In this document: positions 3,784-60,538 of the stretch, in pieces
Numbering within the stretch: the stretch's first letter is position 1
Layout: every line of letters begins with the position of its first letter
Origin: Candidatus Poribacteria bacterium
Lineage (GTDB): Bacteria; Poribacteria; WGA-4E; WGA-3G
Length of the DNA stretch: 64,000 nt
Assembly (NCBI GenBank): GCA_003635315.1
Contig: PYJD01000031.1
Location: 157,958 to 221,957, forward strand
Reading direction: 5' to 3'
The notes under the pieces: model-generated
What the model was told of the DNA's origin: nothing
The model's database searches: none
What the model saw: the letters and a program-made list of their open reading frames with translations, nothing else
Translations under genes and position numbers: made by a program

Positions 3784-3913
3784 TTGAAAATAATAACACA
3801 AAATCCCTGTAGGAGCGATTTCCGAATCGCGATTTAACTCACTGATAGTCGGGAATCGGAGTTCGCTCCTACATCTCAAAATGTTCCATTAATTCAAAAG
3901 CTTACTATAAAAG
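3784..3913. repeat. ~130-bp hairpin repeat (copy A). Acts as a rho-independent terminator on the minus strand for the transporter gene 3999..6275.
   Basis: Long imperfect hairpin GTAGGAGCGAttTCCGA...TCGGagTTCGCTCCTAC. On the minus strand it is followed by GGGAUUUUGUGUUAUUAUUUU. About 93% identical to copy B at 6358..6488. Confidence 0.7.
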
Positions 3914-3998: not shown

Positions 3999-6275
3999 TT
4001 AATCTATTGAAATCGTCTGTTTTGTGTGTACGAATAATACATCATTCACACCTGCATATCTTTGCAGGATAAGGTCCAATTCATCAGAATTGAGATCATC
4101 ACTTGTTAAACCAACAATTACTAAATCTGCTTGTGCTGATCTATGTGTAACTTCTTCCTCCATGGTCTCCTCATTTTCATAAGAAACAGAAGTTACATTT
4201 TGCATAGAAATGGGTAATCTACCTTCTTTGATTACAGTTGAAAGATGATCTGTATCCAGTTCAGTATCCCAAGAATCTGCACAAGCAAAAAGACGTATCT
4301 TCGCCTTCTTCCATTCAGGATGACCAACAAGTATATATGCCAGCAACAACATCATGGGAACATTCGAAATGTTGTCATTGGTAACCCATACATGGATAGA
4401 TGATCTGTAACCAAAACGATACTTTGTTGACCGAAGAATCAGAACATTGAAAAGGGAATCTACTGCCAGAAGTGCTCCTTGTTGAACTTCAGCAATCTCT
4501 TCTGGATGCTCTTTATCAAACTCAAGCAATATAGAGTTATTTGGTAAACCCGAAATACCGGGCATTTGCATTACTTGTGACAGAGCGAGTTGGAAATCAG
4601 GACAAATGAGCGAATCCACAAAAACACCCGCACCACTTGCCTCGGATTGTTGAATGAGTGCCTCAACATGCATACGTGCAGATATTTCATCAGTAAATGA
4701 ATAATCCCCTTGGAAATATTGTATAAAATGACCGAATCCATGCCTATGACAAATCCAACGTAATAAATCAAAGTGTCCAAGACGTCTTTCCCCAAATTGT
4801 GTGATTGCAACTATGGAAGGACGCCAACCACTTTCTGATATATTCGCCCGTTCTTTCTGCAATGTTGTTTGCAACCATCGTGTCAATTGAAACATAGCAC
4901 CTTGAAAAATTCCTGACAATCCACGTTGTTCATCACGACCCCTACGTAATCCTATATAGATCGCCATCATGATTGTTATAGAAATGATGGCGGAGAGAAA
5001 ACTGATTTGAAACATCATGATACCACACATGATTGTTCCCAGTAAGGATACATACCATCGAGAATGGAATGTTGGACGATAGGATGGATTTCCTGCGAAA
5101 TATTCAAGGAACGAGACAATACAAAGTGCACCATAGGTTACAAGGAAGAACATTGTCAATATCTTAGCAATGAAGTTTATTCCACCTATAGAAACAAAGA
5201 CCAATGCAATTATTCCTGAGACAAAAGTTGCTGGTACCGGATCCTGTTCTTTACCTACACCAAAACGCAACAATCTATTTATACTTGGGATTGGCATGAC
5301 ATTGTCTCTTGCAAGTGCTTGTAGTGTTCTGGGTGCAACCATAATTGATCCCAAAGCAGATGATAAGGATGCTGCACCTAACCCTATGTAAATAGCAGGT
5401 TCAAAGAGTGAGATCTTCCCCATAATAAACTGATCATTGGCAAGGTCGTTGGGTGTGGCATTCCAGCTTAACTTAACTGCCACCAGAATATATACTACCA
5501 TTCCAGCTAAGGTCGCACTAATTGTACCGAGTGGTATACTCCGCTGTGGATTATTTAGGTCACCAGATAGACCCAAACCTGCAATCATTCCAGTAAAGGC
5601 AGGAAAACATGTGGCGAAAACTATACCGAATCTTTCTGGTTCAGCGATAGTTGCGATGATATTCAAAGCCATTGGCGTATTGCCTTGCTCTGGACTTCCA
5701 AATAAGAATGATAAGAGCGCTGCACCCAGAATAATACAAATTGCCCACAGCATGGATACCCCTATATTCGCTCCCTTAGTCAGCATGATTATCACTAAAA
5801 GCACTGTTCCAGGAATACTTACCCAACGTAGATTAATATCACTTTCAAATTCATAACGTAATTGTATATAATCAAAGATCGGTTTAAATGCTTCTGCAAA
5901 TGCGACCATATAGAAGGCGATTGATATCGCTTGTGAAAGGAATAAAGCTAAACCGATGGTTCCACCAATACTTGTACCAAAGGATCGGCTTACAATATAG
6001 TAGGCACCACCCCCCGCAACTCTTCGGTTAGTTGCTACTTCTGAAACAGCAAGTACAGTAGGAATTGTCACCAAATGACCAAGTACTATAATGGCAAGTG
6101 TCTTCAATAAACCGACATTCCCTACCACATAACCAAAACGCAAAAACAAGATCGCACCAAGAATTGTACTTATTGACGCCAAGAAGACTGGAGCAGTTCC
6201 AAATCCATGACCAAACTGAGGAGTACTATTCCCATTGCCTGATGTACTGGTTTGTTGACCTAACTTTGAAATCAT
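3999..6275 (-). CDS. APC-superfamily transporter with large C-terminal cytoplasmic domain (cation-chloride cotransporter / amino-acid permease-like)
   Basis: 758 aa; ~12 TM N-terminal permease domain with APC-like glycine-rich helices, followed by a ~300-aa soluble C-terminal domain as in the SLC12/CCC family. Confidence 0.55.
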   Translation of the reverse strand: MISKLGQQTSTSGNGNSTPQFGHGFGTAPVFLASISTILGAILFLRFGYVVGNVGLLKTLAIIVLGHLVTIPTVLAVSEVATNRRVAGGGAYYIVSRSFGTSIGGTIGLALFLSQAISIAFYMVAFAEAFKPIFDYIQLRYEFESDINLRWVSIPGTVLLVIIMLTKGANIGVSMLWAICIILGAALLSFLFGSPEQGNTPMALNIIATIAEPERFGIVFATCFPAFTGMIAGLGLSGDLNNPQRSIPLGTISATLAGMVVYILVAVKLSWNATPNDLANDQFIMGKISLFEPAIYIGLGAASLSSALGSIMVAPRTLQALARDNVMPIPSINRLLRFGVGKEQDPVPATFVSGIIALVFVSIGGINFIAKILTMFFLVTYGALCIVSFLEYFAGNPSYRPTFHSRWYVSLLGTIMCGIMMFQISFLSAIISITIMMAIYIGLRRGRDEQRGLSGIFQGAMFQLTRWLQTTLQKERANISESGWRPSIVAITQFGERRLGHFDLLRWICHRHGFGHFIQYFQGDYSFTDEISARMHVEALIQQSEASGAGVFVDSLICPDFQLALSQVMQMPGISGLPNNSILLEFDKEHPEEIAEVQQGALLAVDSLFNVLILRSTKYRFGYRSSIHVWVTNDNISNVPMMLLLAYILVGHPEWKKAKIRLFACADSWDTELDTDHLSTVIKEGRLPISMQNVTSVSYENEETMEEEVTHRSAQADLVIVGLTSDDLNSDELDLILQRYAGVNDVLFVHTKQTISID

Positions 6276-6357: not shown

Positions 6358-6488
6358 CTTGAAAATAATAACACAAAATCCCTGTAGGAGCGATCTCCGA
6401 ATCGCGACTTAACTCAGTGATAGTCGGGAATCGGAGTTCCCTCCTACATCTAAAAATGTTCCATCAATTCAAGAGTTTACTATAAACA
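6358..6488. repeat. ~130-bp hairpin repeat (copy B). Acts as a terminator on the minus strand for gene 6532..7266.
   Basis: Near-identical to 3784..3913; sits 47 bp beyond the 3' end of the minus-strand gene 6532..7266. Confidence 0.7.
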
Positions 6489-12034: not shown

Positions 12035-12420
12035 ATACCACTACCCTCTTGTAGGTCGGGTTGAGGAACGAAACCCATAGGTGTCAACTTAAGAAAATCA
12101 TTCCATTTTATGAGTGTCTTCAGTCCCATAGGGACGATATGTTTATAGAAAAAATGTCAATACAACATTTTGAGTTCCGTAGGAACGGAATGTATATACC
12201 ACAACCCAATTATAAACATTTCGTTCCTACGGAACTCAAGAAAGTTCAGGATAACGGCTTGCTATAAACATATCGTCCCTACAGGACTAAAGAGGATGAC
12301 ATCAACGTCTGTCTATAAACACTCCGTCCTTACCAAATCAACACCAAATGCGCATTTGGCATTTATCGGGACTGAGGCGGCTTTCTGTATTAGAAAATCC
12401 TTAAGTTGACACCTATAGTG
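12035..12420. mobile_element. MITE-like element of family B. It has a leader-like segment, 19-bp perfect terminal inverted repeats (ATAGGTGTCAACTTAAG) and internal GTCCCnnnGGGAC-GGAATGTTTATAG hairpin units in both orientations.
   Basis: CATAGGTGTCAACTTAAG at 12067 and CTTAAGTTGACACCTATAG at 12402 are reverse complements. The interior carries five hairpin units, and the track ORFs inside are spurious. Confidence 0.65.
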
Positions 12421-13624: not shown

Positions 13625-13662
13625 TCCCTCTTGTAGGTCGGGTAGAGGAACGAAACCCACCG
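13625..13662. repeat. Solo copy of the family-B leader segment (CCTCTTGTAGGTCGGGTaGAGGAACGAAACCC)
   Basis: Matches 12035..12066 and, reverse-complemented, 58640..58680. A further fragment lies at ~18458..18488. Confidence 0.6.
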
Positions 13663-13983: not shown

Positions 13984-16900
13984 ATGCCTTACGTTAACAT
14001 CAAAACAACCCACAAACCTATTAAGACCTATTATGACGAACTGGATAATTACACCCAACTCGGTGCGAAAAACGAAGGCACTGTCCGTTCCGCATTCCAA
14101 AATCTCCTTCAACACTATTGTGGTAAATGCAATCTAACTCTTCTCTGCGAAAGAACAAAATATATCGCTGAAAATAGACGTATAACACCCGATGGTGAAG
14201 TCGTAGATTCATACGGAATACCACACGGATATTGGGAAGCAAAAGACACACAAGACGACCTACATACAGAAGCAACCAAAAAATTCGCTGCCGGATACCC
14301 ATCCAAAAACATTGTCTTACAATCCCCCACACATGCACTTCTATATCAACACGATGAGTTGGTGCATGATCTTAACCTCACAGATCCAAAAAACCTTGTA
14401 CAAGTCCTTGAATCCTTTTTCGCATATCAAGCAGAAAATATATCTGCATGGCATACAGCAGTCGCAGAATTTAAGGAGATGGTACCTGAATTAGGTAATA
14501 AATTAAAAGAATTAATAGAAAACGAACGTCAGAACAACTCACACTTTCATGATGCATTCTCTAAATTCCATCAACAATGCCAAGCATCGATTAATCCTAA
14601 CCTCTCTATCCCTGCTGTAGAAGAAATGCTCATTCAACACCTGTTAACGGAACGGCTTTTCAGAACTGTCTTCGACAATCCAGACTTCACAAGAAGAAAC
14701 ATAATCGCTCGGGAAATTGAGAATGTCATAGATGTGTTAACAGAACGTTCGCTCAATAGATCCGAATTCCTCCGACCTTTGGAACGTTTTTACACTACCA
14801 TCGAAAAAACTGCTAATACCATAACCGATTTCTCACAGAAACAGAGTTTTTTAAATACGGTTTATGAACAGTTTTTTCAAGGTTTCTCAGTCAAAGTCGC
14901 AGATACACATGGGATTGTCTACACACCACAACCGATAGTCGATTTTATGGTGAAAAGTGTAGAACATATCCTTCAGACAGAATTCGGTCGTTCCATAGCA
15001 GATGAAGGTGTCCATATTATTGACCCATTTGTTGGGACGGGCAATTTCATTGTTCGCATCATGCAGGAACTTGATCCCATTGCATTAGAACGTAAATATA
15101 CTGCAAATCCTCCCGAACTCCAGTGTAATGAGGTAATGCTGCTACCCTATTACATCGCAAATATGAATATAGAACAACAGTTTTACACCAAGACCAACAG
15201 ATATGCATCCTATGAAGGTCTCTGCCTTGTAGATACATTCGAGTTAGCAGAGGATAAACAGATTCCACTATTAGCACCAGCAAACACACAACGTGTAGAA
15301 AAACAGAAGCAGACACCTATGTTTGTTGTAATTGGTAATCCACCTTACAATGTTGGACAAGTCAATGAGAACGATAATAACAAGAATCGTAAGTATGAGA
15401 CTATGGATAAACGGGTCGCAGAAACTTATGTAAAAGATTCAAAAGCAACTCTTAGAAATAAATTATCTGATCCTTACGTAAAAGCAATTCGATGGGCATC
15501 AGATAGGATTGGGAAAGAAGGAATTGTTGCTTTTGTAACTAATAATGGATTTCTGGATGGTATAGCTTTTGATGGTATGCGTAAACATCTCGCTCAAGAT
15601 TTTAATATAATATACCATATTGATTTTAAGGGTAATGCTCGAACCTCTGGAGAACGACGGAGACAAGAAGGGGGTAATATCTTTGATGATCAAATCCGGG
15701 TTGGTATCGGGATTAGTTTTTTTATAAAGAAAGGCAATTCTACTTCTAAATCAACAAAGGTCTTTATTCATACAGTGGATGAATATTTAAAAGCAAATGA
15801 GAAACAGTCATTATTAACTCAATTCACAGATATTTCAGCTGTTTCATTCAATAAGATCAAGATTGATGAAAAGTATACTTGGCTCACGGAGGGATTGCAT
15901 TCAGAGTTTTATGACTACATTCCTATCGGTATCAAATCTTCAAAAAACAATAAAGAACCTAAAAGTACAATTTTTAATATTTATTCCTTAGGAGTAGCTA
16001 CAAATAGGGATTACCTTGCCTATTCTTATAATTTATCCCTATTAGAGGATAAGGTAAAAACATTTATAGAAATCTATAATACATCATTAGATAGAAGAAA
16101 AAGGCAAGATAAAAAACACTCTATAGATGATTCAATAGATACTAATGATCCACGCATTAAATGGACGCGACAAGTTAAGAGATCATTAAATAAAATGGAA
16201 TCAAACAATTTTGAAGTGACCCACATACGTAGAGCATTATATCGTCCGTTTAATAGACAATATCTCTATTTTGATAATTTTTGGAATGAGGAACGATATC
16301 AACAATATAGAATTTATCCTACCAAAGATACAGAATTAGAAAACATGGCAATCTGTGTTAGCGGAATAGGAGGGAAAAAACCGTTCCAAACATTGGCAGT
16401 TGGTATGATACCAGATCTTCATTTCACAGGTGATTCACAATGCTTTCCTTTTTATACATACGACGAGGATGGCTCAAACAGACGAGAAAACATTACGGAT
16501 TGGGCATTAAATGCATTTCAAACTCAATACAAAGACAACAGTATTACCAAATGGGACATCTTCCACTATAATTACGGTCTATTACATCATCCCGAATATC
16601 GTGAGAAATACCAAGCCAACCTAAAACGGGACCTACCACACATCCCTTTCGTTAAAGATTTCTGGGGATTTACAAAGGCAGGGGCACGATTAGCTGAAAT
16701 ACATGTCAACTACGAATCACAACCAGAATACGAATATGTTATACTCATTCAAAACCCCGATGTTCCTCTCAATTGGCGGGTAGAAAAAATGAAACTCTCC
16801 AAAGACAAAACTTCCCTTGTCTATAACAACTTCCTAACAATTGACGGTATACCACTAAAAGCCCTCGACTATCGACTCGGTACACGTTCAGCATTGGAAT

Positions 16901-17079
16901 GGATAATCAACCAATATTGTGTCAAAACAGACAAACGGAGCGGTATCGTCAACGACCCCAACCGTGAAGATGATCCACAATACATCGTCAGGTTAATCCG
17001 TCAAGTCATCACAATCAGTTTAGAGACTGTAGACATTGTAGAAGAATTACCTAAATTAGACATTCTCAATATTGAATAA
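13984..17079 (+). CDS. Type IIL (MmeI-like) single-chain restriction-modification enzyme with endonuclease, N6-adenine methyltransferase and target-recognition domains
   Basis: N-terminal PD-ExK motif D-x9-EAK (DSYGIPHGYWEAKD) as in MmeI. Methyltransferase motif I IIDPFVGTGNF and motif IV VIGNPPYNVGQ. 1031 aa with a large C-terminal target-recognition domain. No separate methyltransferase gene adjacent. Confidence 0.8.
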   Translation: MPYVNIKTTHKPIKTYYDELDNYTQLGAKNEGTVRSAFQNLLQHYCGKCNLTLLCERTKYIAENRRITPDGEVVDSYGIPHGYWEAKDTQDDLHTEATKKFAAGYPSKNIVLQSPTHALLYQHDELVHDLNLTDPKNLVQVLESFFAYQAENISAWHTAVAEFKEMVPELGNKLKELIENERQNNSHFHDAFSKFHQQCQASINPNLSIPAVEEMLIQHLLTERLFRTVFDNPDFTRRNIIAREIENVIDVLTERSLNRSEFLRPLERFYTTIEKTANTITDFSQKQSFLNTVYEQFFQGFSVKVADTHGIVYTPQPIVDFMVKSVEHILQTEFGRSIADEGVHIIDPFVGTGNFIVRIMQELDPIALERKYTANPPELQCNEVMLLPYYIANMNIEQQFYTKTNRYASYEGLCLVDTFELAEDKQIPLLAPANTQRVEKQKQTPMFVVIGNPPYNVGQVNENDNNKNRKYETMDKRVAETYVKDSKATLRNKLSDPYVKAIRWASDRIGKEGIVAFVTNNGFLDGIAFDGMRKHLAQDFNIIYHIDFKGNARTSGERRRQEGGNIFDDQIRVGIGISFFIKKGNSTSKSTKVFIHTVDEYLKANEKQSLLTQFTDISAVSFNKIKIDEKYTWLTEGLHSEFYDYIPIGIKSSKNNKEPKSTIFNIYSLGVATNRDYLAYSYNLSLLEDKVKTFIEIYNTSLDRRKRQDKKHSIDDSIDTNDPRIKWTRQVKRSLNKMESNNFEVTHIRRALYRPFNRQYLYFDNFWNEERYQQYRIYPTKDTELENMAICVSGIGGKKPFQTLAVGMIPDLHFTGDSQCFPFYTYDEDGSNRRENITDWALNAFQTQYKDNSITKWDIFHYNYGLLHHPEYREKYQANLKRDLPHIPFVKDFWGFTKAGARLAEIHVNYESQPEYEYVILIQNPDVPLNWRVEKMKLSKDKTSLVYNNFLTIDGIPLKALDYRLGTRSALEWIINQYCVKTDKRSGIVNDPNREDDPQYIVRLIRQVITISLETVDIVEELPKLDILNIE

Positions 17080-18105: not shown

Positions 18106-18187
18106 AAAAACACCAGATTTCCAATGGTGAGATGTTTTTCAATCACGACGAATCCGTCCCAATCCCTCTTCTCCGCGGAATCCGCGT

Positions 18188-18291
18188 AATACCATTTCCA
18201 ATTAAAAAACTCTCTTTTTGTAGCACAAACTTTCAGTTTTTGTCTTCCCTGTTTCATTCCTAACAGTCGGTAATGAGATAATCATAAATAG
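18188..18291 (+). mobile_element. MITE-A copy (terminal inverted repeat ATACCATTTCTAATT / TAGAAATGGTAT; core hairpin CACAAACT-ttc-AGTTTGTG)
   Basis: Nested inverted repeats; partial copies follow at 18296..18350 and 18430..18460. The track ORF 18009..18257 (peptide GRQKLKVCATK) is an artefact of this repeat. Confidence 0.65.
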
Positions 18292-18549
18292 AAATAGGTA
18301 TTCCTAATACCATTTCTACATGAATATGTCACTTCTTGTAGCATAAACTACCAGACCAAATGCTGATTACATATTTTTTTAATAAAATTGAAAATTAAAT
18401 GAAGAAAATAACTATATCTAACAACTAACATTACCAAAAGCTACTTTTTTAGCATAAACTTCGAGAAGGTAGGGAAGGAACGAACCCACCATCCACAGTT
18501 CCACCTTTCCAATCTTCCAATTCCGTACTTTTATGGGAAGTATATAATT

Positions 18550-18968
18550 AGAGAATAAATGATGAAAATCTATAAAAACGATCCTAAATACCAATACCCT
18601 CTTTATGTCAAAAAAACAGCTTTAATATGCAGTTTGAAAAACACAAAATCAGCAAGGAAAGAAAAACACAAAATCACACTTTTTGGAAATTCTTATAAAG
18701 TCAATTCAAAATGGAGTGAACTCAGTCTATGACAGAGGTTAGAGGGGTAATTTACACTAATTTCAATCCTACAAAATGTAGGAAAAAGTGTAACTTTTTT
18801 CACTTTTTACACACTTTTTCACCACAGGGAAAAATCAACATTTTCACGATTTATTATATGGGAATTTAGGATTAAAGGTCTGTTTTTGACCCCTATTCGT
18901 TCGTCTGGATATTAGGATTAAATGTTCAATTTACGAATATGAGTTTTAATACAATTTCTAAATGAAAA
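18550..18968 (+). repeat. ~420-bp non-coding element, copy 1. About 80-85% identical to the reverse complement of 59455..59883.
   Basis: Colinear match across the whole length (AGAGAATAAATGATGAaAAtCTATAAAAACGATCCTAAATACCA ... GGGAATTTAGGATTAAAGGTCTGTTTTTG ... TATTAGGATTAAA). Contains hairpin + AAAAGTGTAACTTTTTTCAC motif. Confidence 0.7.
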
Positions 18969-19015
18969 TGTCTCTCTTTGTAGCATAAACTGATAGTTTG
19001 TGCCACATTACGCTT
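18935..19015 (+). mobile_element. MITE-A variant copy (core CATAAACT-gat-AGTTTGTG)
   Basis: Same architecture as other MITE-A copies, with compensatory substitutions in the stem. Confidence 0.5.
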
Positions 19016-19252
19016 CAGTTCTACTGTAACTATTGTAAAAATTAAGGCAGGATATCTAAAACTGAATAGTCCTGCAAATATATTAAAAGTACTTGTCAAA
19101 ATAGAGGAATTATACAATACTATATTGTAGAATCTTTAAGAATCTCAAATGAATAATTTAAAATACAAAAATAATACATACAAAAGAACATCACATTACT
19201 TACCGAAATCGTTTAGAAAAAATATCAATCAAGCTAAACGAAGGAGAATAAA

Positions 19253-22210
19253 TTGAAAGTCTTAAAACTTATTCTATTTTTCTCATTTATCTTTTCTGTT
19301 CCAGTTTCAATAGCCTATGAATACCAGTGGATAAATAATGAAGAAATCGAAGGGGCAGACAGCGTTACAGAGGTTAAGCCTCTCCAAGTCATTTTTCTTG
19401 ATGAACCCATTGAGGTGGTAACACACAGTGCCTCTTTGCGTTTGATGCAAAAGTATTCTGTATACCTTGGCACAGAATGGAGTCCGGGGAACGCATATCG
19501 ACTGCTTAAAACTTTCGAATCCATACCCCAACTGACAAACAATCCTTATCATGTTGAACCCACAGTACCTTATTCCTTATGGAAACTGACCCGAAAACAC
19601 ATTCAGGGTGACATCGAAATAGATGTTAGAAATAGACAGACTATTGTTACTGTTTCAGAGGGTGCGTTTACCTATACTGAACCGAGATTGGCAGAGATTG
19701 AAGGTGTGGAAGGACGCTACTTTTCGAAACGACTACATCACGCAGTTGTTCGGTTCGTAACAGATGACGGTAGAGACAGACAAGCAATTGAGTACATATT
19801 GAACAAACGTTATGGGATCAGTTTAAATGTACCCGACTACACAGAATTGACGCGACACACAACAGGTGAGCACGCTGCGCGTTTCACAACCTTTAAAGAC
19901 GAAGAGGTGTTGGATCTCGTCAATATGATTGAGGAATTCCCAACTGGCATGCATAAAATTACGGGACTGAATTACATCATTCGACGTTTAGATGGAACAC
20001 CCCACCCACTTTATCCCACTGCTCCCGCAGTCGCATGGACACAGAGCGGTTACATTGAGTTCATGGAATCCGCATTTCTGGAACAAGGAGCAGACTATAT
20101 CCACCGTTTAATCCTTCATGAAAAGGCACACTTTTTGTGGGAATACCTATTTGATGATCAACTCAAACAGGATTGGATTGAGCTTGGAGGTTGGTATGAA
20201 AATCCAGACGATGTGGATGGGTGGTCTACGACAAAACAGCTTGAGTTTGTTTCCGCGTATGCACACGGCAAGAATCCTAATGAGGATATGGCAGAGAGTA
20301 TCAGTCATTACATCGTTCGACCTGACATACTCCGGTCACGCGCACCAGACAAATATCAATTCATCCAAGATCGGATTATGCACGGCACACGTTATATATC
20401 ACGCATACGCGAAGATCTAACCTTCCAGGTCTACAACCTTTATCCTGATGTCGTGTATCCAGGACGAATTATACGGGTGAATATAGATGTTAGTGGTGAA
20501 CCGGAAGCAGATAAACGTATAGTGATTGAAATAGAACTACACCAGACAGGAGATTTAGACACAGCACAAGCATCAAGTGTCAGAATATTTAGTGACAAAG
20601 GCACATACTTTGACATCTGGCTGTATCCAATAAAAAACGGTATATATACGGATACAGGACATATTCTGCGAGGTGAGGTAGTTTTATCGCGCTATGCTGC
20701 ACACGGATATTGGGGTCCAGATGCGATTACTCTCAAAGATGCTCAAGGAAATGAACGACACCAATCACAAACCGATTTTGGATGGAAACTCTATATCAAC
20801 AGTCCGTTAGCTGACACGGAGGCACCGATTTATGTAAAAAACTCTATGCGTCTTTCCTTGTCAGATGATATGGAAAATGGAAGGCCACTGCAAATATTGA
20901 CGGCTCAGTGGAAGATCATTGAGCAAAATGATATTGAATCCATTTCAGCACGAGCAAACGACGAAAGTGATGAGACTTATTCACGACATTCGTTTAACTT
21001 TGGAACATACGATAAACAGACCGGTTTAGCGACTGTTAAGCTTATTATCCCTGATTACTTCCAAACCGGGATATATTCACTGAACCATATAAGTATGAAA
21101 GATATCGCATTAAACACACGCGGCGTCTACTTTACTAAACCGCATTCCAGCATAAGGGACGAAGAAGAAATCCTTGATGAGAAACCTGCCACCATCCATA
21201 TTAAAACAACAAACCCTGATAGCAATCCCCCTATTCTTGATTTGAACTGGATTACTGTAACAGCAGAACCGACAAATCCTGATGAACCAAACGGGGAAAC
21301 ACGAGTTGATATTACCTTCAGAATTAAGGATGACATCAGTGGATATAGTAAGACATATATTGATTTACGTGATCCACATGGCGTGGTTCACACCTTTTCA
21401 CATCTTCATAGCGATTATTACAAAACCTATTTCACAGAGGATCCATTTGACTTTAAAATCTACAACAAAACGATTATTCTTCCTGTTGGTAGCGTCCCGG
21501 GTACATGGGGTATTTCTCAGATGACAGTTCAAGATAAGGCACAAAACATCCTACGCGCCGACTTCACAGAAATTGTCCGTTTTGTTGTGAATGATATGTC
21601 TGTCATATCTCAATACGACGTCAATGGTGATGGAAAGATAGACATACTGGATTTAATAATGGTAGCAAATGCATTTGGAACGACTGAGAATGATAGTGCG
21701 GATGTCAACGGTGATGGTGCTGTCAATATACAAGATTTAGTAGGAGTTGCCAGTCATATCGGTGAAGGATCTTTAGAGGCACCGACTACACACAATCTAA
21801 CTGCCAACCAAATACAAAGTTGGATCACACAAGCAACACAAGTCGATGACGGTAGTCCTGCTTTCCAGTCAGGTATTCGTGTGTTACAAGACCTCTTACT
21901 CGAACTGCAACCAGAAAAGACTGAACTGTTGCCAAATTATCCTAACCCGTTTAACCCGGAGACATGGATTCCCTATAAATTGGCAAATCCAAGTGATATA
22001 ATAATAAATATCTATGATTCGAGTGGCAGCCTTGTGCGTCAACTTGACTTGGGTCATCAGTCAACCGGTATATACCAGATTCGTAGTCGTGCTGCATATT
22101 GGGATGGTCGGAATAAGCTTGGGGAACGGGTGGCGAATGGAATCTATTTTTATCAACTGCAGACGGATAGTGTTTCACCACCACTTAGGAAAATGGTTAT
22201 TCTGAAATAA
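19253..22210 (+). CDS. Secreted multidomain zinc metalloprotease (HExxH) with dockerin-type repeats and a T9SS (Por) C-terminal sorting domain
   Basis: Signal peptide; HEKAHFLWEY (HExxH); dockerin repeats DVNGDGKIDILDLIMV and DVNGDGAVNIQDLVGV; C-terminus LLPNYPNPFNPETWIPYKL...NGIYFYQL...KMVILK typical of a T9SS sorting domain. Confidence 0.75.
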   Translation: MKVLKLILFFSFIFSVPVSIAYEYQWINNEEIEGADSVTEVKPLQVIFLDEPIEVVTHSASLRLMQKYSVYLGTEWSPGNAYRLLKTFESIPQLTNNPYHVEPTVPYSLWKLTRKHIQGDIEIDVRNRQTIVTVSEGAFTYTEPRLAEIEGVEGRYFSKRLHHAVVRFVTDDGRDRQAIEYILNKRYGISLNVPDYTELTRHTTGEHAARFTTFKDEEVLDLVNMIEEFPTGMHKITGLNYIIRRLDGTPHPLYPTAPAVAWTQSGYIEFMESAFLEQGADYIHRLILHEKAHFLWEYLFDDQLKQDWIELGGWYENPDDVDGWSTTKQLEFVSAYAHGKNPNEDMAESISHYIVRPDILRSRAPDKYQFIQDRIMHGTRYISRIREDLTFQVYNLYPDVVYPGRIIRVNIDVSGEPEADKRIVIEIELHQTGDLDTAQASSVRIFSDKGTYFDIWLYPIKNGIYTDTGHILRGEVVLSRYAAHGYWGPDAITLKDAQGNERHQSQTDFGWKLYINSPLADTEAPIYVKNSMRLSLSDDMENGRPLQILTAQWKIIEQNDIESISARANDESDETYSRHSFNFGTYDKQTGLATVKLIIPDYFQTGIYSLNHISMKDIALNTRGVYFTKPHSSIRDEEEILDEKPATIHIKTTNPDSNPPILDLNWITVTAEPTNPDEPNGETRVDITFRIKDDISGYSKTYIDLRDPHGVVHTFSHLHSDYYKTYFTEDPFDFKIYNKTIILPVGSVPGTWGISQMTVQDKAQNILRADFTEIVRFVVNDMSVISQYDVNGDGKIDILDLIMVANAFGTTENDSADVNGDGAVNIQDLVGVASHIGEGSLEAPTTHNLTANQIQSWITQATQVDDGSPAFQSGIRVLQDLLLELQPEKTELLPNYPNPFNPETWIPYKLANPSDIIINIYDSSGSLVRQLDLGHQSTGIYQIRSRAAYWDGRNKLGERVANGIYFYQLQTDSVSPPLRKMVILK

Positions 22211-22772: not shown

Positions 22773-22841
22773 CCGGGAACATCTATCTTCATAATAAGCA
22801 CACGTAGGGTTCCAACCTATAAGAACCCCAAAATAAAACAA

Positions 22842-22955
22842 TACCATTTCTAATTTATAAACTCTCTTTTTTGTAGCACAAACTTTCAGTTTGTGTCTTC
22901 CTTGTTTCATTTCTAACAGCCAGTAATGAGAGAAATAATAAATTTGAAATGGTAT
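22842..22955 (+). mobile_element. MITE-A copy (reference copy)
   Basis: ATACCATTTCTAATT...CTCTCTTTTTTGTAGCACAAACTTTCAGTTTGTGTCTTCC...AATGAGAG...TTTGAAATGGTAT; a degenerate second copy lies at ~23040..23110 (core CATAATCTG-tca-GATTGTG). Confidence 0.7.
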
Positions 22956-24427: not shown

Positions 24428-24629
24428 CATCTTTAGAATCTACATGTTTATCCTACCGTGTACCACATTTTCACTTGAATTATCAGACCAATATGGACAA
24501 TGGTAGAACATAATGATAATTTTACCATACCGATATCAATTATACCATAGGGTTATTTAGTTTTCTAAATTTCCACTACTTTTTATTTATTCCGTAATTG
24601 TATATATTGTTATCTTATATAGGTCTTTA

Positions 24630-24980
24630 GTCCCATCGGGACGGAATGTTTATAGCAAAAGTGTATACACCATAGGGAGTTCCATCAGGACGGAATGTTT
24701 ATAGAAAAAATGCGAACCCCTATCTTGAGTTCCGACATATGCTATATGCTTATTTGACGTTGATTAGGTAGGGACGGAATGTCTATAGAAGAACGTATTC
24801 ACACAGTCTTGAGTCCCATCGGGACGGAATGTTTATAGAAAAATGCGAACCCCTATCTTGAGTTCCGTAGGAACGGAATGTTTATAAAAGAACGTATTCA
24901 CACAGTCTTGAGTCCCATCGGGACGGAATGTCTATAGAAAAATGCGAACCCTATCTTGAGTTCTGTATGAACAGCATAAT
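24630..24980 (+). repeat. Family-B tandem array. It carries about 7 units of a ~26-bp hairpin repeat (GTCCCATCGGGACGGAATGTTTATAG) separated by ~23-bp segments that themselves recur in alternation. CRISPR-like but not CRISPR.
   Basis: Stem variants GTCCC/GGGAC and GTTCC/GGAAC (compensatory). 'Spacers' AAAAATGCGAACCCCTATCTTGA and AAGAACGTATTCACACAGTCTTGA each occur 3 times. Confidence 0.7.
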
Positions 24981-25529
24981 CAAAAAACATATCGTCACGG
25001 GTGGGTATAAACTTTGAGTAAATAACAATAACGGAAGCCCCTTAAAAATATGACATTTTCATCAACTATTCATGAAATCCTACAAATCGTTGTAGGTTCT
25101 TCCTATTGAGGATCTAACAAATCATCATATAAGTCAATAAAGTATCGTAAAATATTGTTCTTGACAAATACAACCAAATATGTTTTAATTTTGATTGATG
25201 AGTTACGATGTGCCACAGTTTAGAGGGTTTTTGCATCATTATTACGTTAATTCCCTCCTAATGCTTAACAAAATTTACCACTTTTCTAAGGAAAAATAAA
25301 AACGGGGAGATTTCATAAATAGATATAGGAACGAGTGGATCACATGGCGTAGAAATAACAATTATGATTGTAATGAGGTTGCCATGGGAGCACATGTTGA
25401 CGATGTTTTGAGATCGTTAGTTAGTTCAAACAAACTTAAAAGATTAGGTAATGGATGGGATAGAGTTGTTAGTACTGAAGCAATAAACATAGAAGTACCA
25501 TCGATATTTTAGAACATGATTTCGTAAAG

Positions 25530-25689: not shown

Positions 25690-26334
25690 AAGGTTGAAAA
25701 TGCAGAGATAACTGAAGCACCCCAACTCAAAGGTGATGTAAACGGCGATGGTATCGTCAACATACAAGATTTGGTGTTAGTCACTTCTAATCTTGGGAAA
25801 TAGGGACAAATGCTGCGGATGTGAACGGTGATGGCATCGTTAATATTCAGGATCTCGTCCTTGTTGCTGGTGCATTAGGTACAAGTGCAGCCTCACCATC
25901 TATACTTTCCCAATCATTAGAGACACTACAACTGCAGATGTCAAATTGTGGTTATCTCAAGCACAACAACTAAATCTCACGGATACTACCTCCCAGCGCA
26001 GTAGCCTGTTCTTAGAACAACTCCCTGAGACGTTAACACCGAAAGAGACAGCACTGCTACCAAACTATCCAAATCCGTTCAACCCAGAGACGTGGATACC
26101 GTATCAGTTAGCGAAGGATGCGAATGTTGCACTGCATATCTATGCTGTAAACGGCACATTGGTGAGAACATTAGCACTCGGATATCAGGCTGCGGTCGGT
26201 ATCAGAACCGTAGTCGTGCCGCGTATTGGGATGGTAAGAATGAATTCGGTGAACGCGTGGCGAGTGCAGTGTATTTCTATACACATACAGCAGGTAATTT
26301 CACTGCTACGCGTAAGATGTTGATACGGAAGTAA
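25690..26334 (+). pseudogene. Frameshifted remnant of a dockerin + T9SS C-terminal domain, copied from the 3' end of the 19253..22210 gene
   Basis: Frames contain GDVNGDGIVNIQDLVLV, ADVNGDGIVNIQDLVLVAG, then LLPNYPNPFNPETWIPYQL...HIYAVNGTLVRTLALGYQ, and in another frame RSRAAYWDGKNEFGERVASAVYFY...RKMLIRK. Confidence 0.7.
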
Positions 26335-26443
26335 ACCTTATCAACGAAACACGGAAGAGTGTAAGCTAACACCCTTCTATTAACAACCTGACTGCACAAC
26401 TACACATTGCATTCATAAATCAATAAAGGAGTTTATGTTGAAA

Positions 26444-27076
26444 ACTTTAGTTGTAAATGTAAATAATTTTGTATCAAGACCACTAATTTTGAGTTTTATT
26501 ATAGTCGTTTTAGTTATGTTCTCTAAAGCTTCTGTTTCGGTAGCTGAATTTGAGGTAGGAACACAATTCGGATTTACCCGACTTGTTCCCACAGATGAAA
26601 CTTAATCTTCAGTATCGGTTCTACAGGTACCCTCAGGAGAAATATCTGGTGTTGGTGCCTCGCCTTACCTAACTTTCTTTCCTCATAAGCAGCTTGCTGT
26701 TAGTCCTGCATTCGATTTTACACGGCTAACGACAACAACGTCTTTTACACTTTGGGGAGAAAGTGAAAAAGTAACCGTGAGTGCAAGCCAACTCTACTTA
26801 GGAAGTAAATTTCATTATTTTTTTATCGGTCATCAAGTGTCTAATCCTTATTTATTTGGAAAAGTGTCCATAACCGCTCCATTTAGTGAAAACAGTGACA
26901 GTGAAGTATTATTTCATACTGGGATTGGTCTTGGTTACCAATTGCCCATTGTCCCTGCTTATTTTCTTCGGTTGGAAGGACAGTACAACCGTTTGATAAA
27001 TGAAGACGAAAACGCTAACGGTTTTTCAGTAATGATGGGTATTGGTGTGCGGTTTGGAAACAACGAAGAAAGATAG
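26444..27076 (+). pseudogene. Probable disrupted outer-membrane beta-barrel gene (signal peptide in one frame, rest of protein in another)
   Basis: MLKTLVVNV...VLVMFSKASVSVAEFEVGTQFGFTRLVPTDET* stops at 26604. Beta-barrel-like sequence continues in a different frame to 27076 (…GIGLGYQLPIVPAYFLRLEGQYNR…GIGVRFGNNEER). Confidence 0.4.
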
Positions 27077-27344
27077 CACACTGAGAGAACACGTGGTAAC
27101 GATTTTACCACTACAGCAAAATGTTGATATAATGTAGTAGGTTGGGTCGGTTCTCCTTAACGCTCAATCCAACCTACGAAATCCACTATACCTCACCTAC
27201 AACGGAAATACGCAAAATGAATCAATACGCAAAATCTAATATAATAGCGTTATTTACAATACCTTTGTAAAATTAGGTAGCAACATAGGTTAGTATAAAT
27301 CAATATAAGGCACTATATCGGTAAGGTTCTATAATCTGTAAACC

Positions 27345-27385
27345 CAAAAACAGGTAGGTAATATATCAATTACCTACCTGTTTTT
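27345..27385. terminator. Bidirectional rho-independent terminator
   Basis: AAAAACAGGTAGGTAAT-atatca-ATTACCTACCTGTTTTT (perfect 15-bp stem flanked by A/T runs). Confidence 0.8.
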
Positions 27386-27639
27386 ATATAAAAGTTATTC
27401 AAACACATTAACAAGCCGTGTCCGGACAATCAAGTTTTCATATTTTTGCCAATATTGATAACACCAATCCGTCCATCTTAAGGTAATCCTTACAGAGAAA
27501 CATAAACATACACCCAGATAGCCAGAAACGATCTTATACATTTTTTTATCATTGTTATGTCATTGAAGATTAACTATTGGTTGGGTATAGTATGTATTTT
27601 GATTTACGCATCAATTAATACCATTACAGATATAAAATA

Positions 27640-27720
27640 TCTCTCCCTTGTAACCTAAACTGCCAGTTTGTGGCACAATCCGCTTTCTCTCTAACAACAG
27701 GTAATCGAAAAAATATAATA
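27640..27720 (+). mobile_element. MITE-A variant copy (core CCTAAACT-gcc-AGTTTGTG)
   Basis: Same spacing and flanks as other copies, with stem covariation. Confidence 0.5.
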
Positions 27721-27766
27721 AAAATTGAAGAAATATTAAAGAACAAACATCACATTTATAAATTAG

Positions 27767-27797
27767 TTGACAGAATAGTAAACATACGTTACAATAC
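27767..27797 (+). promoter_or_regulatory. Sigma-70-like promoter (TTGACA-17-TACAAT)
   Basis: TTGACAgaatagtaaacatacgtTACAAT; the nearest downstream ORF is 27910..28200. Confidence 0.45.
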
Positions 27798-27909
27798 CAG
27801 ATAGTGAATTATTTTAATACTCAAACTAATGCCAAACCAGTATGAATTAAGTATACATATACACTGTTTTACAAATATGACTTCTATCACACAAATTAAT
27901 GGACATTAA

Positions 27910-28200
27910 ATGTTAAAGAATCCATCAAGAACACTTTTTTATTTTTTTACACAAATTCGTAAATTGGCTATAAACATAGGTGGCTACTTACCTAACAGCG
28001 AATATACAAAAATTGAGGTGACAGAAAAAAGTTACGATTTCGTAACTTTTTCAAACAATAGTAATAAAGAAATTACAAACTTTCCGAAGCGGTCAAAATC
28101 ATCTAAAAATAAGAACAGCAAAACTGGTAAAAGTGTATATTGGATCTTCATCGGAAATGTAAGGAAGATACAAAATCCCACAATTTCCGAATTATTATAA
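27910..28200 (+). CDS. Hypothetical small basic protein (96 aa)
   Basis: ORF downstream of a consensus promoter; no recognisable domain and no ribosome-binding site. Confidence 0.25.
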   Translation: MLKNPSRTLFYFFTQIRKLAINIGGYLPNSEYTKIEVTEKSYDFVTFSNNSNKEITNFPKRSKSSKNKNSKTGKSVYWIFIGNVRKIQNPTISELL

Positions 28201-28477
28201 TTCTAATAAAAACACCGATGAACACAGACTGTGACAGGGCGGACAGCGGTTTTTATAATGACACACAATGTGTCAAAAAGTGTAACATTTTAAACATACT
28301 AATATATAATATATTACTATTGTTAATTAGAAAAATGGTGTAAATTACGGAGAATTACTTGGTTAAATATATAGGTATAGTGAAAAATAAAGATACCTTA
28401 AAAATAAGATTTAGGTGATATATTCCAAACTGATAATATAGGTTTTTGAGATATGTGATAGATAACAAATTACATCT

Positions 28478-28587
28478 AATACCATTTCTAATTGATGAAC
28501 TCTATTTTTTGTAGCACAAACTTTTAGTTTGTGTCTTCCCAGTTTCATTCCTAACTGCCGGTAATGGGACAATAATAAATAGAAATG
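28478..28587 (+). mobile_element. MITE-A copy
   Basis: ATACCATTTCTAATT...TGTAGCACAAACTTTTAGTTTGTGTC...AAATAGAAATGGTAT; track ORF 28411..28617 is spurious. Confidence 0.7.
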
Positions 28588-28876
28588 GTATAACAACAGA
28601 CAATAACTATAATCCAATAATATACTATTAGATAAACCAGAATCCTACTATTTTCACGCTTTCTAAACTTGCAATTATGGATAAAATAAGGTATAATAAT
28701 ACTGAAATTGTACAATAAATTAATAATATTCGAAGATATTTTTGGTTAAAATTCTACTGCTTACTCCTTACCTCAAGAGCAACTACTTCTCAACTTATAC
28801 TTATAGGATTTTAGCTTACTTGAATGATAGAAAGATATTATTAAACGCTCTCTCAGGTAAATGTATTGAGGAATAA

Positions 28877-29890
<1,014 letters not shown>

Positions 29891-53972: not shown

Positions 53973-54039
53973 GTTTAACTATATTACTCCATTTACCTGA
54001 TATTTATATATTGTATAAATCTAAGTTATACATTTTCTA

Positions 54040-54139
54040 TTAATTTGTATCTCATTACCGGTTGTTAGGAATGAAAAGGGAAGGCACAAACTAACAGATT
54101 ATGCTTCTACAATGAGATATTTTCAATTAGAAATGGTAT
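54040..54139 (-). mobile_element. MITE-A copy (reverse orientation) between lptA and lptB
   Basis: Reverse complement gives ATACCATTTCTAATT...TGTAGAAGCATAATCTGTTAGTTTGTGCC...GGTAATGAGAT. Confidence 0.6.
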
Positions 54140-54269
54140 TAGATAAACACATCTGGTTATCAACCTACTTAGAAAACCTTTATCATCTAATACAACTATT
54201 TCTCAATACATATAATTTGTTGTTAAGTAATCCTATATTGGATTAAAAACATTTCGATTTATTAACAGT

Positions 54270-58257: not shown

Positions 58258-58322
58258 TTTAAATGAGGATGTTTCATAATTGTAGAGCCATAGGCGTAAA
58301 TTAGCTCCTTTCCCAAACCTGG

Positions 58323-58680
58323 TAGAGTTGGTTTGGAACCGAATGGAACTCCTTATGGTGTATACACCTTTGCTATAAACATTCCGTCCCTACGAGACTC
58401 CTTATGGTGTTTACACCTTTGCTATAAACATTCCGTCCCTATGGAACTCACTATGGTGTTTACACCTTTGCTATAAACATTCCGTCCCTACGGGACTCAC
58501 TATGGTGTTTACACCTTTGCTATAAACATTCCGTCCCTACGGGACTCCTTATGGTGTATACACTTTTGCTATAAACATATCGTCCCAATGGGACTAAAGA
58601 CATCAATATCAGACAACTATAAACCACTAAGTTGACACTTATGGGGTTTCGTTCCTCAACCCAACCTACAAGAGGTGCTG
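58323..58680 (-). repeat. Family-B tandem array: 6 units of 49 bp (27-bp hairpin repeat + 22-bp palindromic GGTGTATACACC-containing segment) ending in the family-B leader/terminal-inverted-repeat segment
   Basis: Plus strand reads (CTATAAACATTCCGTCCCTACGGGACT + CCTTATGGTGTATACACCTTTG) x~5, then ...CTAAGTTGACACTTATGGGGTTTCGTTCCTCAACCCAACCTACAAGAGG. The 22-bp segments are near-identical, so they are not CRISPR spacers. Confidence 0.7.
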
Positions 58681-59454
58681 CCATATACCTTTCGTCTCTC
58701 CGTGGATTTGACTCATCCAACTTGAGAGATGCAGTATTAATTACTATAACGTTAATTTATATTGGATATCAATCTCCTTTCAGAAGTTTCGATTCATCAA
58801 TTTAGAATTTGTCTAAAAACGGGAAAATGTTACACTTTTTCCTACATTCTGTAGGATTTTTTTTCGGTGAAATTATGGCTTTTAGACCAGTGCTGTACTG
58901 GGTTCAGCACCATCAATTTAGAGGAAAGCACAATTATGTATTTTTTCATTTTTGTGTTATTTTTCTGATTTCTGTTTTTTGTGTAAAATTATCACATATG
59001 TTAATATTTCGTTGATAATTATGAGTTGTTAGTTTATAGTTATCAATTAGCGATTGTTGGTTGTCAGATAAAGGAATATCTGCCCAAGGAATTACTGTAT
59101 ATCTCATGGTCTTTTTTTGAGATATTTCTATATATTTTCTGATCCAGAATGAGCTGAATTTAATTGAGAAAGTTACGATACTGTAACTTTTTTCATGTAT
59201 ATCTTTCATTTTGAAATAGTATAATCCTTGATTTTAGTTTTTCAAGTTTTTCAAGTCGGTTTTTAAAATCTCCCAATTTGGAGTGTCTTTCAGTAATTCT
59301 GGCACTATGCTCTTAAAGGAAATCATTTACAGTGCGAATGAATTGACTTTATATGGTTCGTTATTGTTTATAGATGTTGTACCGATTCTAAGAATGATGT
59401 TGCATAACAAGCTAATTTGGATATCATCTCATACTGTCTAACCTAAAGGTTATG

Positions 59455-59883
59455 CTAAAATAAAGAAACATATTCATTTAGAAATAGTATTAGAACTCAT
59501 AGTCGAAAATTACACTTTTAATCCTAATATACAGACAACGTAATAAGGTGCAAAAACAGACCTTTAATCCTAAATTCCCCATTGAAAAATTGTGAAAATG
59601 TTGAATTTTTCAATTCGCTGAAAAAGTGAAAAAAGTTACACCTTTTGACACATTCTGTGTCATTGAAATTGGTGTAAATAACCCCTCTAAGCTCTTTCAT
59701 AGACTGACTTTACTCCACTTTGAATTAACTTTTTAAGAATTTGTAAAAAGTGTGATTTTGTGTTTTTGTTGTCCATGCTAATTTTGACAATTTCAACATG
59801 GGTATTATAGTTGATTTTTCGACATAAATATAGTTGTGGTATTTAGGATCGTTTTTATAGGTTGTCATCATTTATTCTCTTAT
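59455..59883 (-). repeat. ~420-bp non-coding element, copy 2 (inverted relative to 18550..18968)
   Basis: See copy 1. The adjacent 59400..59455 carries a MITE-A-like core (TAGCATAACCtttaGGTTAGAC). Confidence 0.7.
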
Positions 59884-60204
59884 TATTTCTTTCTTATTAA
59901 GGTTATGATTTTAAGTTTTACATATCTCATAAATCAGATATTTGGTGATGTTTTTATCTTGCTCTTTGCTTTATATGGAAACAACGGGCGGGTTTTTTAT
60001 ATATAATTTGGCCGCCCCAACGAATTTGATCAACTAAAAATAAACAATCGTTAATAAGTATTATACAAATATATTTTGATTTTGACAAGTTAATTTGCTG
60101 AATTTATTTGTCTTATGTCTTTTAGTGGGTTGTGGTTTGGATTTTATTCAATTTTTTTTAATTAGGTATCAGACTTTTAGTTTATTTTCTTAATTGCGGA
60201 TTTT

Positions 60205-60470: not shown

Positions 60471-60538
60471 ACAGTATGAATGCCATTTAGACATTCCCTG
60501 CTTTAACGTAAACACCTGTAGTTTCAACCGAAAATAAC

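Follow-up and report, generated by a model that had tools for sequence, protein, structure and literature searches.

The locus and its two repeat copies

The 64,000-nt window of Candidatus Poribacteria contig PYJD01000031.1 considered here (G+C content, 36.9%) carries two copies of a non-coding repeat unit in inverted orientation, with the housekeeping genes gap, tpi, secG, valS, hpf, rpoN, and one for an lptB-type ABC ATPase between them. These two stretches are securely identified as members of a new lineage-specific, non-coding, non-autonomous interspersed repeat with a mosaic architecture. A preliminary description of the window had placed both copies, and the housekeeping genes separating them, correctly, with extents slightly shorter than the ~18527-18992 (plus strand) and 59903-59447 (minus strand) found here; its term "locus" gives way to that of a dispersed, mosaic repeat family. 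The two copies and their parts are as follows.

18527..18992 (+): copy 1 of the repeat unit, comprising modules A, B, and C and the abutting left arm of a miniature inverted-repeat transposable element (MITE); from find_repeats, MAFFT, and blastn
59447..59903 (-): copy 2 of the repeat unit, inverted relative to copy 1; from find_repeats, MAFFT, and blastn
18540..18662 (+): module A of copy 1; from the family alignment, with the frame broken in other copies
18663..18807 (+): module B of copy 1, the 145-nt core; from covariance model R1 (156 bits) and core alignment A4
18767..18783 (+): hairpin B of copy 1, TCCTACAaaaTGTAGGA, then AAAAGTGTAAC; with compensatory changes
18808..18940 (+): module C of copy 1; from the family alignment and promoter scans
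59622..59766 (-): module B (core) of copy 2, with hairpin GACACAgaaTGTGTC at 59661-59647; from the covariance model

The copies match through three inverted colinear arms of 140-150 nt and 77-87% identity in find_repeats (18527-18666/59764-59903, 18659-18808/59621-59770, and 18830-18975/59464-59609), through one 467-column blastn alignment (79.7% identity, E 5.9e-115), and at 82% identity over the ungapped columns of a MAFFT alignment. The identical runs listed earlier are present in the latter, except that copy 2 has AAAAGGTGTAAC where AAAAAGTGTAAC had been given. Further partial blastn matches to the copies lie at 28150-28291 (+) and 58906-58800 (-).

A composite transposon had been judged unlikely, and this holds because the housekeeping genes that separate the copies are conserved and syntenic: relatives with an 81-90% identical MatE keep the order valS-hpf-rpoN-lptB-lptA-lptC-lpxL-matE, and relatives also keep gap-tpi-secG.

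Modular architecture

A multiple alignment of the window copies with 24 copies from a metagenome-assembled genome (MAG) yields a unit of ~410 nt in which the order of the modules, A-B-C, is fixed in all copies. Module A contains, family-wide, a TATAAT-like box, AGAGAATAAATGATGA, AAAACGATCCTAAATAC, and TTTATGTCAAAAAATC. In copy 1, it presents the TATAAT-like box, a Shine-Dalgarno (SD)-like AGAGAATAA followed by ATGATG, where a pseudo open reading frame (ORF) starts, TTTATGTCAAAAA, and the box ACGATCCTAAATAC at 18578-18591, which matches the 3′ TTAGGAT boxes as their inverted complement. Module B is characterized across the family by AAAACACAAAATCAC, AAATTCTTA, CAGTCTATGACAG, AGAGGGGTAATTTACACCAATTTCAAT, a hairpin of 7 bp with a 3-nt loop, and AAAAAGTGTAACTTTTTTC; copy 1 reads ..AAAACACAAAATCAC..AAATTCTTA..CAGTCTATGACAG..AGAGGGG..AATTTACAC..hairpin..AAAAAGTGTAACTTTTTTC.

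Module C consists of one to four 11-nt T-tract units CACTTTTTCGN, whose T5 tracts are in helical phase, followed by CAACATTTTCAC, GAATTTAGGATTAAAGGTCTGTTTTTG, a ~20-nt semi-variable stretch, ATATTAGGATTAAA, and a terminal ..TTTACGAC. Copy 1 carries CAACATTTTCAC and two direct TTAGGATTAAA boxes (18866-18876 and 18912-18922) that flank a sigma-70-like TTGACC-16-GATATT, and its module C ends in ..TTTACGAA. The module A box is the inverted complement of both module C boxes. A CRISPR mini-array was considered for the two TTAGGATTAAA boxes and rejected, the "spacer" being conserved between copies. Blocks including ATATTAGGATTAAA, AAAAAGTGTAAC, and AAAACGATCCTAAAT are invariant despite a mean pairwise divergence of ~13.5%.

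Distribution and age of the family

The copy census that the preliminary description had called for used an exact 21-mer from the 3′ part of the unit, GAATTTAGGATTAAAGGTCTG, against one genome per GTDB species, and returned 24 matches, all in the single MAG CAZZBB01. The window sequence is not among them, the best being 92.6% identical over 312 nt, and since the MAG matches differ from the window, the window's genome is a second carrier. A third turned up at a fetched gap locus, where positions 2454-2828 of contig ctg159749 (L045) are 79% identical to copy 2. The family thus totals at least 27 copies (24 in the MAG, two in the window, and one in ctg159749) with a unit of ~410-450 nt, which bears out its reported multi-copy nature, and its carriers in the census and among the fetched relatives are Poribacteria genomes only. 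NCBI likewise assigns homologues of the MatE and GAPDH proteins encoded in the window to Candidatus Poribacteria. The loci L003-L021 include those of the MAG, L041-L043 are the matE relatives, and L046 is contig ctg366890.

Unit identity across the family is 75-93%. Among 15 full copies from the window and the MAG, pairwise identities range from 81 to 93% (mean, 86.5%); near-identical pairs are absent, and the window copies, 82% identical to each other, are no nearer to one another than to MAG copies. The family is therefore regarded as old and without a recent burst, because no two copies are nearly identical and none exceed 93% identity.

Searches elsewhere returned no counterpart. The unit has no match among 50,697 phage records, 72,556 plasmids, and the IMG/VR contigs, and a metagenome scan with TTAGGATTAAAGG-N-TTAGGATTAAA gave unrelated tandem repeats only. 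Exact-protein look-ups with the window's 297-aa neighbor and P0001 found no record. To our knowledge, Poribacteria have no cultured members, and next to nothing has been described of their non-coding DNA; a literature search found no paper on the latter.

These searches bear on an origin as remnant ends of an insertion sequence (IS), an integrative element, or a prophage, the outcome that had been named as refuting the first interpretation. The copies are indeed multi-copy, lie beside mobile-looking repeats, and sit at synteny breaks. Yet the phage, plasmid, and viral collections hold no match, all copies are whole units of the same length with no isolated left or right ends, and housekeeping genes flank them, which leaves this origin most improbable.

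Coding potential

Short ORFs begin in both copies as described (MMKIYKNDPKY... and MMTTYKNDPKY...) and diverge after a 1-nt indel. Across the family, the putative MMxxYKNDPKY ORF suffers 1-nt deletions (four copies) and a 10/11-nt insertion (five copies), indels of the 11-nt unit switch the later reading frames, and the longest sense ORFs (45-102 aa) occupy frames that differ between copies, the frame being kept in none. The variation across copies shows no excess at third codon positions. With frameshifting indels and no codon periodicity, the unit is non-coding, as had been claimed, and the same features argue against a small protein gene or a type I toxin.

A decayed small protein gene family, of which the copies would be pseudogenes encoding a ~130-aa protein, would account for a family consensus with 3 stops in one sense frame versus 8-11 in each of the other five, and for the SD-like sequence and ATG of module A that resemble real gene starts. 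This is very unlikely, however, given the common 1-, 10-, and 11-nt indels, the lack of a kept frame and of third-position excess, the compensatory hairpin changes that alter the would-be peptide, and the local ORFs, which match no family in Pfam or NCBIfam. Nor do the copies form the tail of a gene family: the genes upstream of the two in the window (297 and 330 aa) are mutually unrelated and without a Pfam or NCBIfam family. A shared ORF before two stand-alone cores was also dismissed, the only stretch in common being 13 aa derived from a DNA palindrome.

Hairpin B and the remainder of the fold

The core hairpin had been reported to show compensatory changes between the two copies (CCTACAaaaTGTAGG versus GACACAgaaTGTGTC), and these prove genuine across the cores of the family. 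Hairpin B is a 7-3-7 palindrome with AAT before it, AAAAAG after it, and no GTAG or CGTC tag. Its pairing extends to 94.7% of cells in 27 cores, and three of its seven pairs have undergone double changes (GC/CG; AU/UA/CG; CG/UA). The observed score is reached by none of 500 shuffles, and slid controls collapse. It is the sole helix predicted across diverged cores and the one conserved hairpin of each unit, with ~245 nt between it and the 5′ edge and ~150 nt between it and the 3′ edge. Since the palindrome is kept by compensatory change, it points to a folded single strand, either RNA or single-stranded DNA (ssDNA), and against a double-stranded protein site. A second hairpin of 5 bp is discernible by eye ~35 nt upstream and remains a hairpin, with altered sequence, in three stand-alone cores (W4, L041a, and L041b), a type of change that column-based covariation counts cannot capture.

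The description of the whole unit as a globally structured RNA is unsupported, as only the 7-bp hairpin covaries. RNAalifold, run on the 15 full copies, proposes long-range helices of GAUCCUAA with UUAGGAUU and of CAAAAUCACACUUU with AAAGGUCUGUUUUUG with a covariation term of -0.63 kcal/mol; the pairs outside hairpin B are uninformative because all are invariant. Minimum free energy (MFE) z-scores are modest and alike on both strands (sense, -1.9 and -1.5; antisense, -2.0). The Rfam comparison that had been proposed matched no family: Rfam 15 gave no match in the whole window at gathering thresholds, and at E<=10 the two copy regions gave chance-level snoRNA-type matches only (E 0.8-7.5). A tRNA/tmRNA scan of the window found no gene.

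Independently transcribed genes for trans-acting non-coding RNAs (ncRNAs) of ~350-400 nt, starting at the TATAAT-like box of module A and closed by pairing of GAUCCUAAAU with AUUUAGGAUU between the 5′ and 3′ ends, are a rather improbable alternative. The box is conserved at the 5′ edge of most copies, alifold and MFE structures both show an 8-10-bp long-range complement between modules A and C, the sense strand shares the A-richness of coding strands, and the hairpin covaries. Against this, scans of two window regions show no -35 element at a workable spacing and no terminator, the long-range helices lack covariation, the z-scores do not distinguish the strands, and the L045 copy has an uncompensated change in the module A box; at least 26 copies would also be unusual for a trans-acting RNA gene.

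Stand-alone cores

The hairpin followed by AAAAAGTGTAAC was correctly said to occur without the rest of the unit, at 28260-28285 (+) and 58855-58830 (-). A covariance model of the core recovers 32 cores in 333 kb, which comprise those in full units and stand-alone ones, and reveals none beyond those already known. Stand-alone cores occur twice in the window, twice in L041, and in L043 and L046; those of the window are listed below.

28165..28299 (+): stand-alone core W3, upstream of gap (117 bits), with an orthologous copy at L046:9388-9521
58816..58960 (-): stand-alone core W4 (112 bits), flanked by copy 2 and the 3′ end of matE

L046 is orthologous to the window over 1.25 kb upstream of gap, and the W3 core is 93.3% identical between the two (95.7% in its 3′ two-thirds) compared with 87.7% in the remaining intergenic alignment (P ~0.025); the start of the gap coding sequence is 90% identical. 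The hairpin of W4 with its T8, read on the plus strand, resembles an intrinsic terminator, and since the scans of two window regions gave W4 only, on the opposite strand, an intrinsic terminator was rejected as the role of the unit.

The region upstream of gap has further features of its own. Within 27725-28056, a promoter-like TTGACA-17-TACAAT at 27766-27794 precedes a perfect palindrome, A6-GTTACGAttTCGTAAC-T5 (28025-28055). Conservation in L046 is 93-95% for both, as opposed to 78% for the next 100 nt, and the stretch may be a small transcription unit; the minus strand carries a comparable GTTAC palindrome at 59195-59165.

Gene setting, orientation, and promoters

All copies are intergenic. 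The downstream gene is co-oriented with the element in 21 of 23 scorable copies (binomial probability ~3e-5, by our hand arithmetic), only two copies are in convergent regions, and no copy is antisense to both neighbors. Orientation differs between copies within four of five two-copy contigs and so goes with the direction of nearby genes instead of the replichore. The downstream genes are functionally unrelated (TPR, GGT, COX3, TruD, GT9, MR_MLE, AhpC, WD40, and cargo of the type IX secretion system), which, together with the single covarying helix, speaks against a riboswitch or pathway leader.

In all three genes checked, the gene has a promoter-like sequence of its own between the element and the start codon. 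That of GGT is TTGACA-17-TAAAAT, exactly where homology to a relative without the element starts, and is conserved in that relative; gap has TTGCAA-17-TATAAT, and the gene at 19253 has its promoter-like sequence at 19093-19121. Within the unit, the recurring promoter-like matches are TTGCAC-16-TATATT, between the two boxes, and TTCACG-18-TAGGAT. Two candidates checked by eye were discarded: a sigma-54 promoter in module C, where GG-N9-GC is one base short of the -24/-12 spacing, and an extracytoplasmic function (ECF)-type promoter, TGTAAC-N14-CGAC, which has the wrong spacing and is missing from the stand-alone cores.

The gene neighborhood of copy 1 also includes a Type ISP restriction-modification gene (Type_ISP_C, E 9e-98) at 13984-17079, 1.4 kb upstream, in a stretch without counterpart in the fetched relatives.

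Unit ends and the adjoining MITE

The tips of the unit (left, ..TATATAATTAGAGAATAAATG; right, ..AATGTTCAATTTACGAC) are not complementary, and its sole inverted repeat is sub-terminal and 9-10 nt long (ATCCTAAAT/ATTTAGGAT). Judged as a MITE, the unit lacks terminal inverted repeats, although it is short, non-coding, and multi-copy. The left flanks share no fixed short motif. The 5′ edge is blurred by other modules, and no target duplication was seen in alignments of the copies and their flanks.

As the preliminary description had noted, both window copies adjoin a MITE: each ends in the left arm of a member of a palindromic family. Some 18 of 26 copies run straight into this element (~115-125 nt, with a GTAG-tagged central hairpin) at the same MITE position; L010, L014, L006, L008, and L021 have no adjoining MITE. 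A further module, U, precedes copy 1 and ~10 other copies. In copy 1 (W1), L005, and L020, the MITE left arm precedes module U through an identical junction, GTAGCATAAACT|ACCAGNCC, and because the same arm thus lies on both sides, a 45-nt MITE arm flanks the composite as a direct repeat in these three copies. The corresponding features of copy 1 are the following.

18947..18991 (+): MITE left arm with the GTAG-tagged hairpin, abutting copy 1; direct repeat of 18305-18349
18305..18470 (+): MITE left arm at 18305-18349, joined to module U at 18350-18470; upstream of copy 1, recurring before ~10 other copies

The MITE family itself (~115 nt; ends TAATACCATTTCTA/TAGAAATGGTAT, central GTAG-tagged hairpin GTAGCACAAACTttcAGTTTGTGTC) is represented in the window at 18187-18300, 22840-22955, 27615-27730, 28477-28591, and 54025-54144 (reverse complement). 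Its copy at 28477-28591 is missing at the orthologous position of L046 (9701/9708), an empty site.

In the main rival explanation, the unit is a non-autonomous mobile element spread by ssDNA or site-specific recombination. The responsible enzymes would be of the HUH/Y1 type, as in palindrome-associated transposable elements (PATEs) of IS200/IS605 or in repetitive extragenic palindromes (REPs) with their REP-associated tyrosine transposases (RAYTs), or of an IS110-like, REP-targeting type, as for the ssr9 module of ISPpu9. Hairpin B and its 3′ flank AAAAAGTGTAAC would be the recognition or cleavage site, and the orientation bias and MITE adjacency would reflect insertion mechanics and not function. 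A structure-kept hairpin beside a conserved single-strand motif suits such sites, the tips lack inverted repeats with no target duplication seen, and both the shared MITE position and the 45-nt direct arm repeats fit; the spread of a non-coding module into REPs by an IS110 transposase is documented (PMC12288879).

We nonetheless consider mobility of this kind unlikely as the explanation. The hairpin is single and lies mid-unit instead of near an end, the family is old with blocks that are nevertheless invariant, and strand-of-replication insertion would not predict the flips with local genes in four of five two-copy contigs. A partner gene is also missing: the 24 right-end matches, wherever any upstream sequence was available, include the corresponding part of the unit and are free of cargo, and the Pfam families listed for 58 ORFs neighboring copies include no transposase, a weak check because single-member families mostly go unlisted. 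The window ORFs scanned with Pfam and NCBIfam contain no transposase family, and no RAYT (Y1) transposase gene was seen in the ~330 kb of Poribacteria sequence examined.

Synteny with relatives and neighboring repeats

Conservation in sister genomes, on which the preliminary description had staked its interpretation, does not extend to the full copies. The orthologous matE flank lacks copy 2 in all three relatives: in its place, L041 shows a MITE and two stand-alone cores, infC-rpmI-rplT occupies the site in L042, and L043 reaches its contig end inside a repeat-rich stretch. One stand-alone core upstream of gap is kept in one relative. The gap-to-matE interval is colinear in two relatives, and the outer flanks differ from every relative fetched. 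At the GGT locus, a close relative carries a different upstream gene, which is not a simple absence of the element.

Synteny with relatives stops in repeat-filled stretches, namely those upstream of gap and of GGT and the one downstream of matE. Intergenic regions filled in this way reach 1.5-3 kb (~26300-28890, 58257-61230, and L003:6725-7550), and at least five interlocking repeat families occupy the intergenic regions of the window, coinciding with breaks in synteny between species. Besides the unit and the MITE, the following repeats were noticed.

Tandem arrays of a 49-50-nt unit with a GTCCCnnnGGGAC hairpin (58296-58629, 24585-24990, and 12112-12293) comprise 5-9 units that are ~90% alike, occur on both strands, and give a sub-threshold Rfam match to Acido-Lenti-1 only (16.7 bits versus a gathering score of 37). 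A 34-nt repeat, CCCTCTTGTAGGTCGGGTTGAGGAACGAAACCCA, lies at 12044-12077, 13626-13659, and 58646-58680 (reverse complement), and also at ~2900-2960 of L045, in another Poribacteria genome. Direct repeats of 128 nt (94% identity; 3784-3911 and 6359-6486) flank an amino-acid permease gene (3999-6275) and recur in the MAG at L003:1656-1797 (92%). An 88-nt direct repeat (76%) has one copy at 22066-22153, in the C-terminal sorting-domain part of a 985-aa FlgD_ig/Por_Secre_tail protein, and one at 26193-26280, in a short ORF (25946-26323) without a family that looks like a second secreted-protein remnant. Finally, L016:1-209 of the MAG and L046:8738-8946 share 209 nt at 98.6% identity, far more than the 75-93% of the repeat families; either the segment is a repeat of very recent origin or the two assemblies are closely related.

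A possible role in cis

We tentatively favor the view that the unit is a mosaic repeat of Candidatus Poribacteria, comparable to bacterial interspersed mosaic elements (BIMEs) and to BOX, whose effect, if it has one, is exerted in cis on transcription. The resemblance to the BIME, BOX, and rhizobial (RIME) mosaics rests on the frequent nesting of the unit among module U and the GTAG-tagged MITE. As for function, a cis role tied to transcription may be proposed with moderate confidence, because copies follow a sense-orientation rule, prefer the 5′ side of genes, retain invariant blocks in an old family, and show extra conservation of the core. The block-wise conservation of an old family and the conservation of the core above its flanks suggest selection.

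If the unit is transcribed, or acts on transcription, in cis, its tolerance or selection in the sense orientation alone would follow. The hairpin with AAAAAGUGUAAC would then be a selected RNA or single-strand signal, and module C, with its phased T-tracts, two TTAGGATTAAA boxes, and weak sigma-70-like site, would form with the inverted ATCCTAAAT box of module A a putative protein-binding or operator-type region. Dispersal would be ancient and probably occurred by trans-mobilization or by recombination at REP-like half-sites, not by current self-transposition.

Several points weigh against a cis-acting repeat. We infer selection from block conservation and a single orthologous pair, and likewise infer transcription at the units and its strand; the 21-mer census itself imposes conservation of that one block. 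Gene adjacency was judged from ORFs of at least 100 aa and not from curated gene calls. The promoter-like matches within the unit score a weak 7-10 bits and have antisense counterparts of similar or greater strength, and the promoter and terminator scans show no enrichment relative to shuffled sequence. Transposase binding would explain the boxes equally well, and the orthologous comparisons of full copies all met a synteny break, with no clean empty site among them.

A stronger proposal is that the unit is a portable cis-regulatory cassette under host selection, or else a large non-coding RNA of a new class, copied before dozens of unrelated genes and wiring them to one factor. That factor would recognize the three TTAGGATTAAA/ATCCTAAAT boxes, the hairpin-AAAAAGUGUAAC signal, or both. 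We hold this to be doubtful; if true, it would amount to regulon building via a dispersed repeat in an uncultured phylum. An old, block-invariant, sense-oriented repeat before unrelated genes is in any case a good candidate for an exapted regulatory module, and were it merely parasitic, it would still serve as a marker of genome plasticity and be a source of assembly breaks in Poribacteria MAGs.

Comparison with known systems

The unit shares features with four kinds of dispersed non-coding elements. HEARO and other ORF-less IS200/IS605 derivatives that bear omega RNAs (PATEs) are likewise multi-copy, non-coding, a few hundred nt long, hairpin-bearing, and devoid of inverted terminal repeats. 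The Poribacteria unit differs from them in having no Rfam match at E<=10, a single conserved internal hairpin in place of sub-terminal hairpins at both ends, no TnpA, TnpB, or IscB found nearby, and left flanks that share no constant tetra- or pentanucleotide.

The ssr9 module of ISPpu9, an IS110-family element of Pseudomonas putida, is non-coding, occurs with or without partner modules and beside REPs, and lacks inverted terminal repeats (PMC12288879). The unit resembles it in all of these respects, its neighbor being REP-like, yet no IS110 transposase or bridge-RNA-like family was found near copies, the copy number is far higher, and mobilization of the unit is hypothetical.

REPs are 20-40-bp palindromes with an unpaired GTAG or CGTC tag, found for the most part on the 3′ side of genes where the neighboring ORFs are unidirectional or convergent, and both GTAG-tagged REPs and RAYTs have been described (PMC3733652). 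With the BIME/REP mosaics of Enterobacteria and the RIMEs of rhizobia, the unit has in common an intergenic, non-coding, multi-copy nature, a mosaic of modules with palindromic hairpins, and a place in variable intergenic regions; the GTAG-tagged hairpins that adjoin it, in the MITE arm, add to the BIME/RIME likeness. It departs from a REP in tag, size, and location, as it is ~10 times longer, its hairpin B is untagged, and it prefers the 5′ sense position (21 of 23 copies upstream and co-oriented) over the 3′ or convergent position of REPs.

The pneumococcal BOX repeat is the product of an old proliferation, is found in few related species, and is thought to act structurally on co-transcribed genes (PMC3049150). 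The two have no sequence similarity, BOX has ends resembling terminal inverted repeats and folds extensively whereas the present unit has one short hairpin, and the orientation bias toward downstream genes is much stronger in Poribacteria. In kind, and not by homology, the unit is nevertheless a BOX-like modular repeat: like boxA-boxB(n)-boxC, it combines three modules in a fixed order (A-B-C) with a variable internal unit (here the 11-nt CACTTTTTCGN, in one to four copies), a narrow host range (carriers found in Poribacteria only), and slow current movement.

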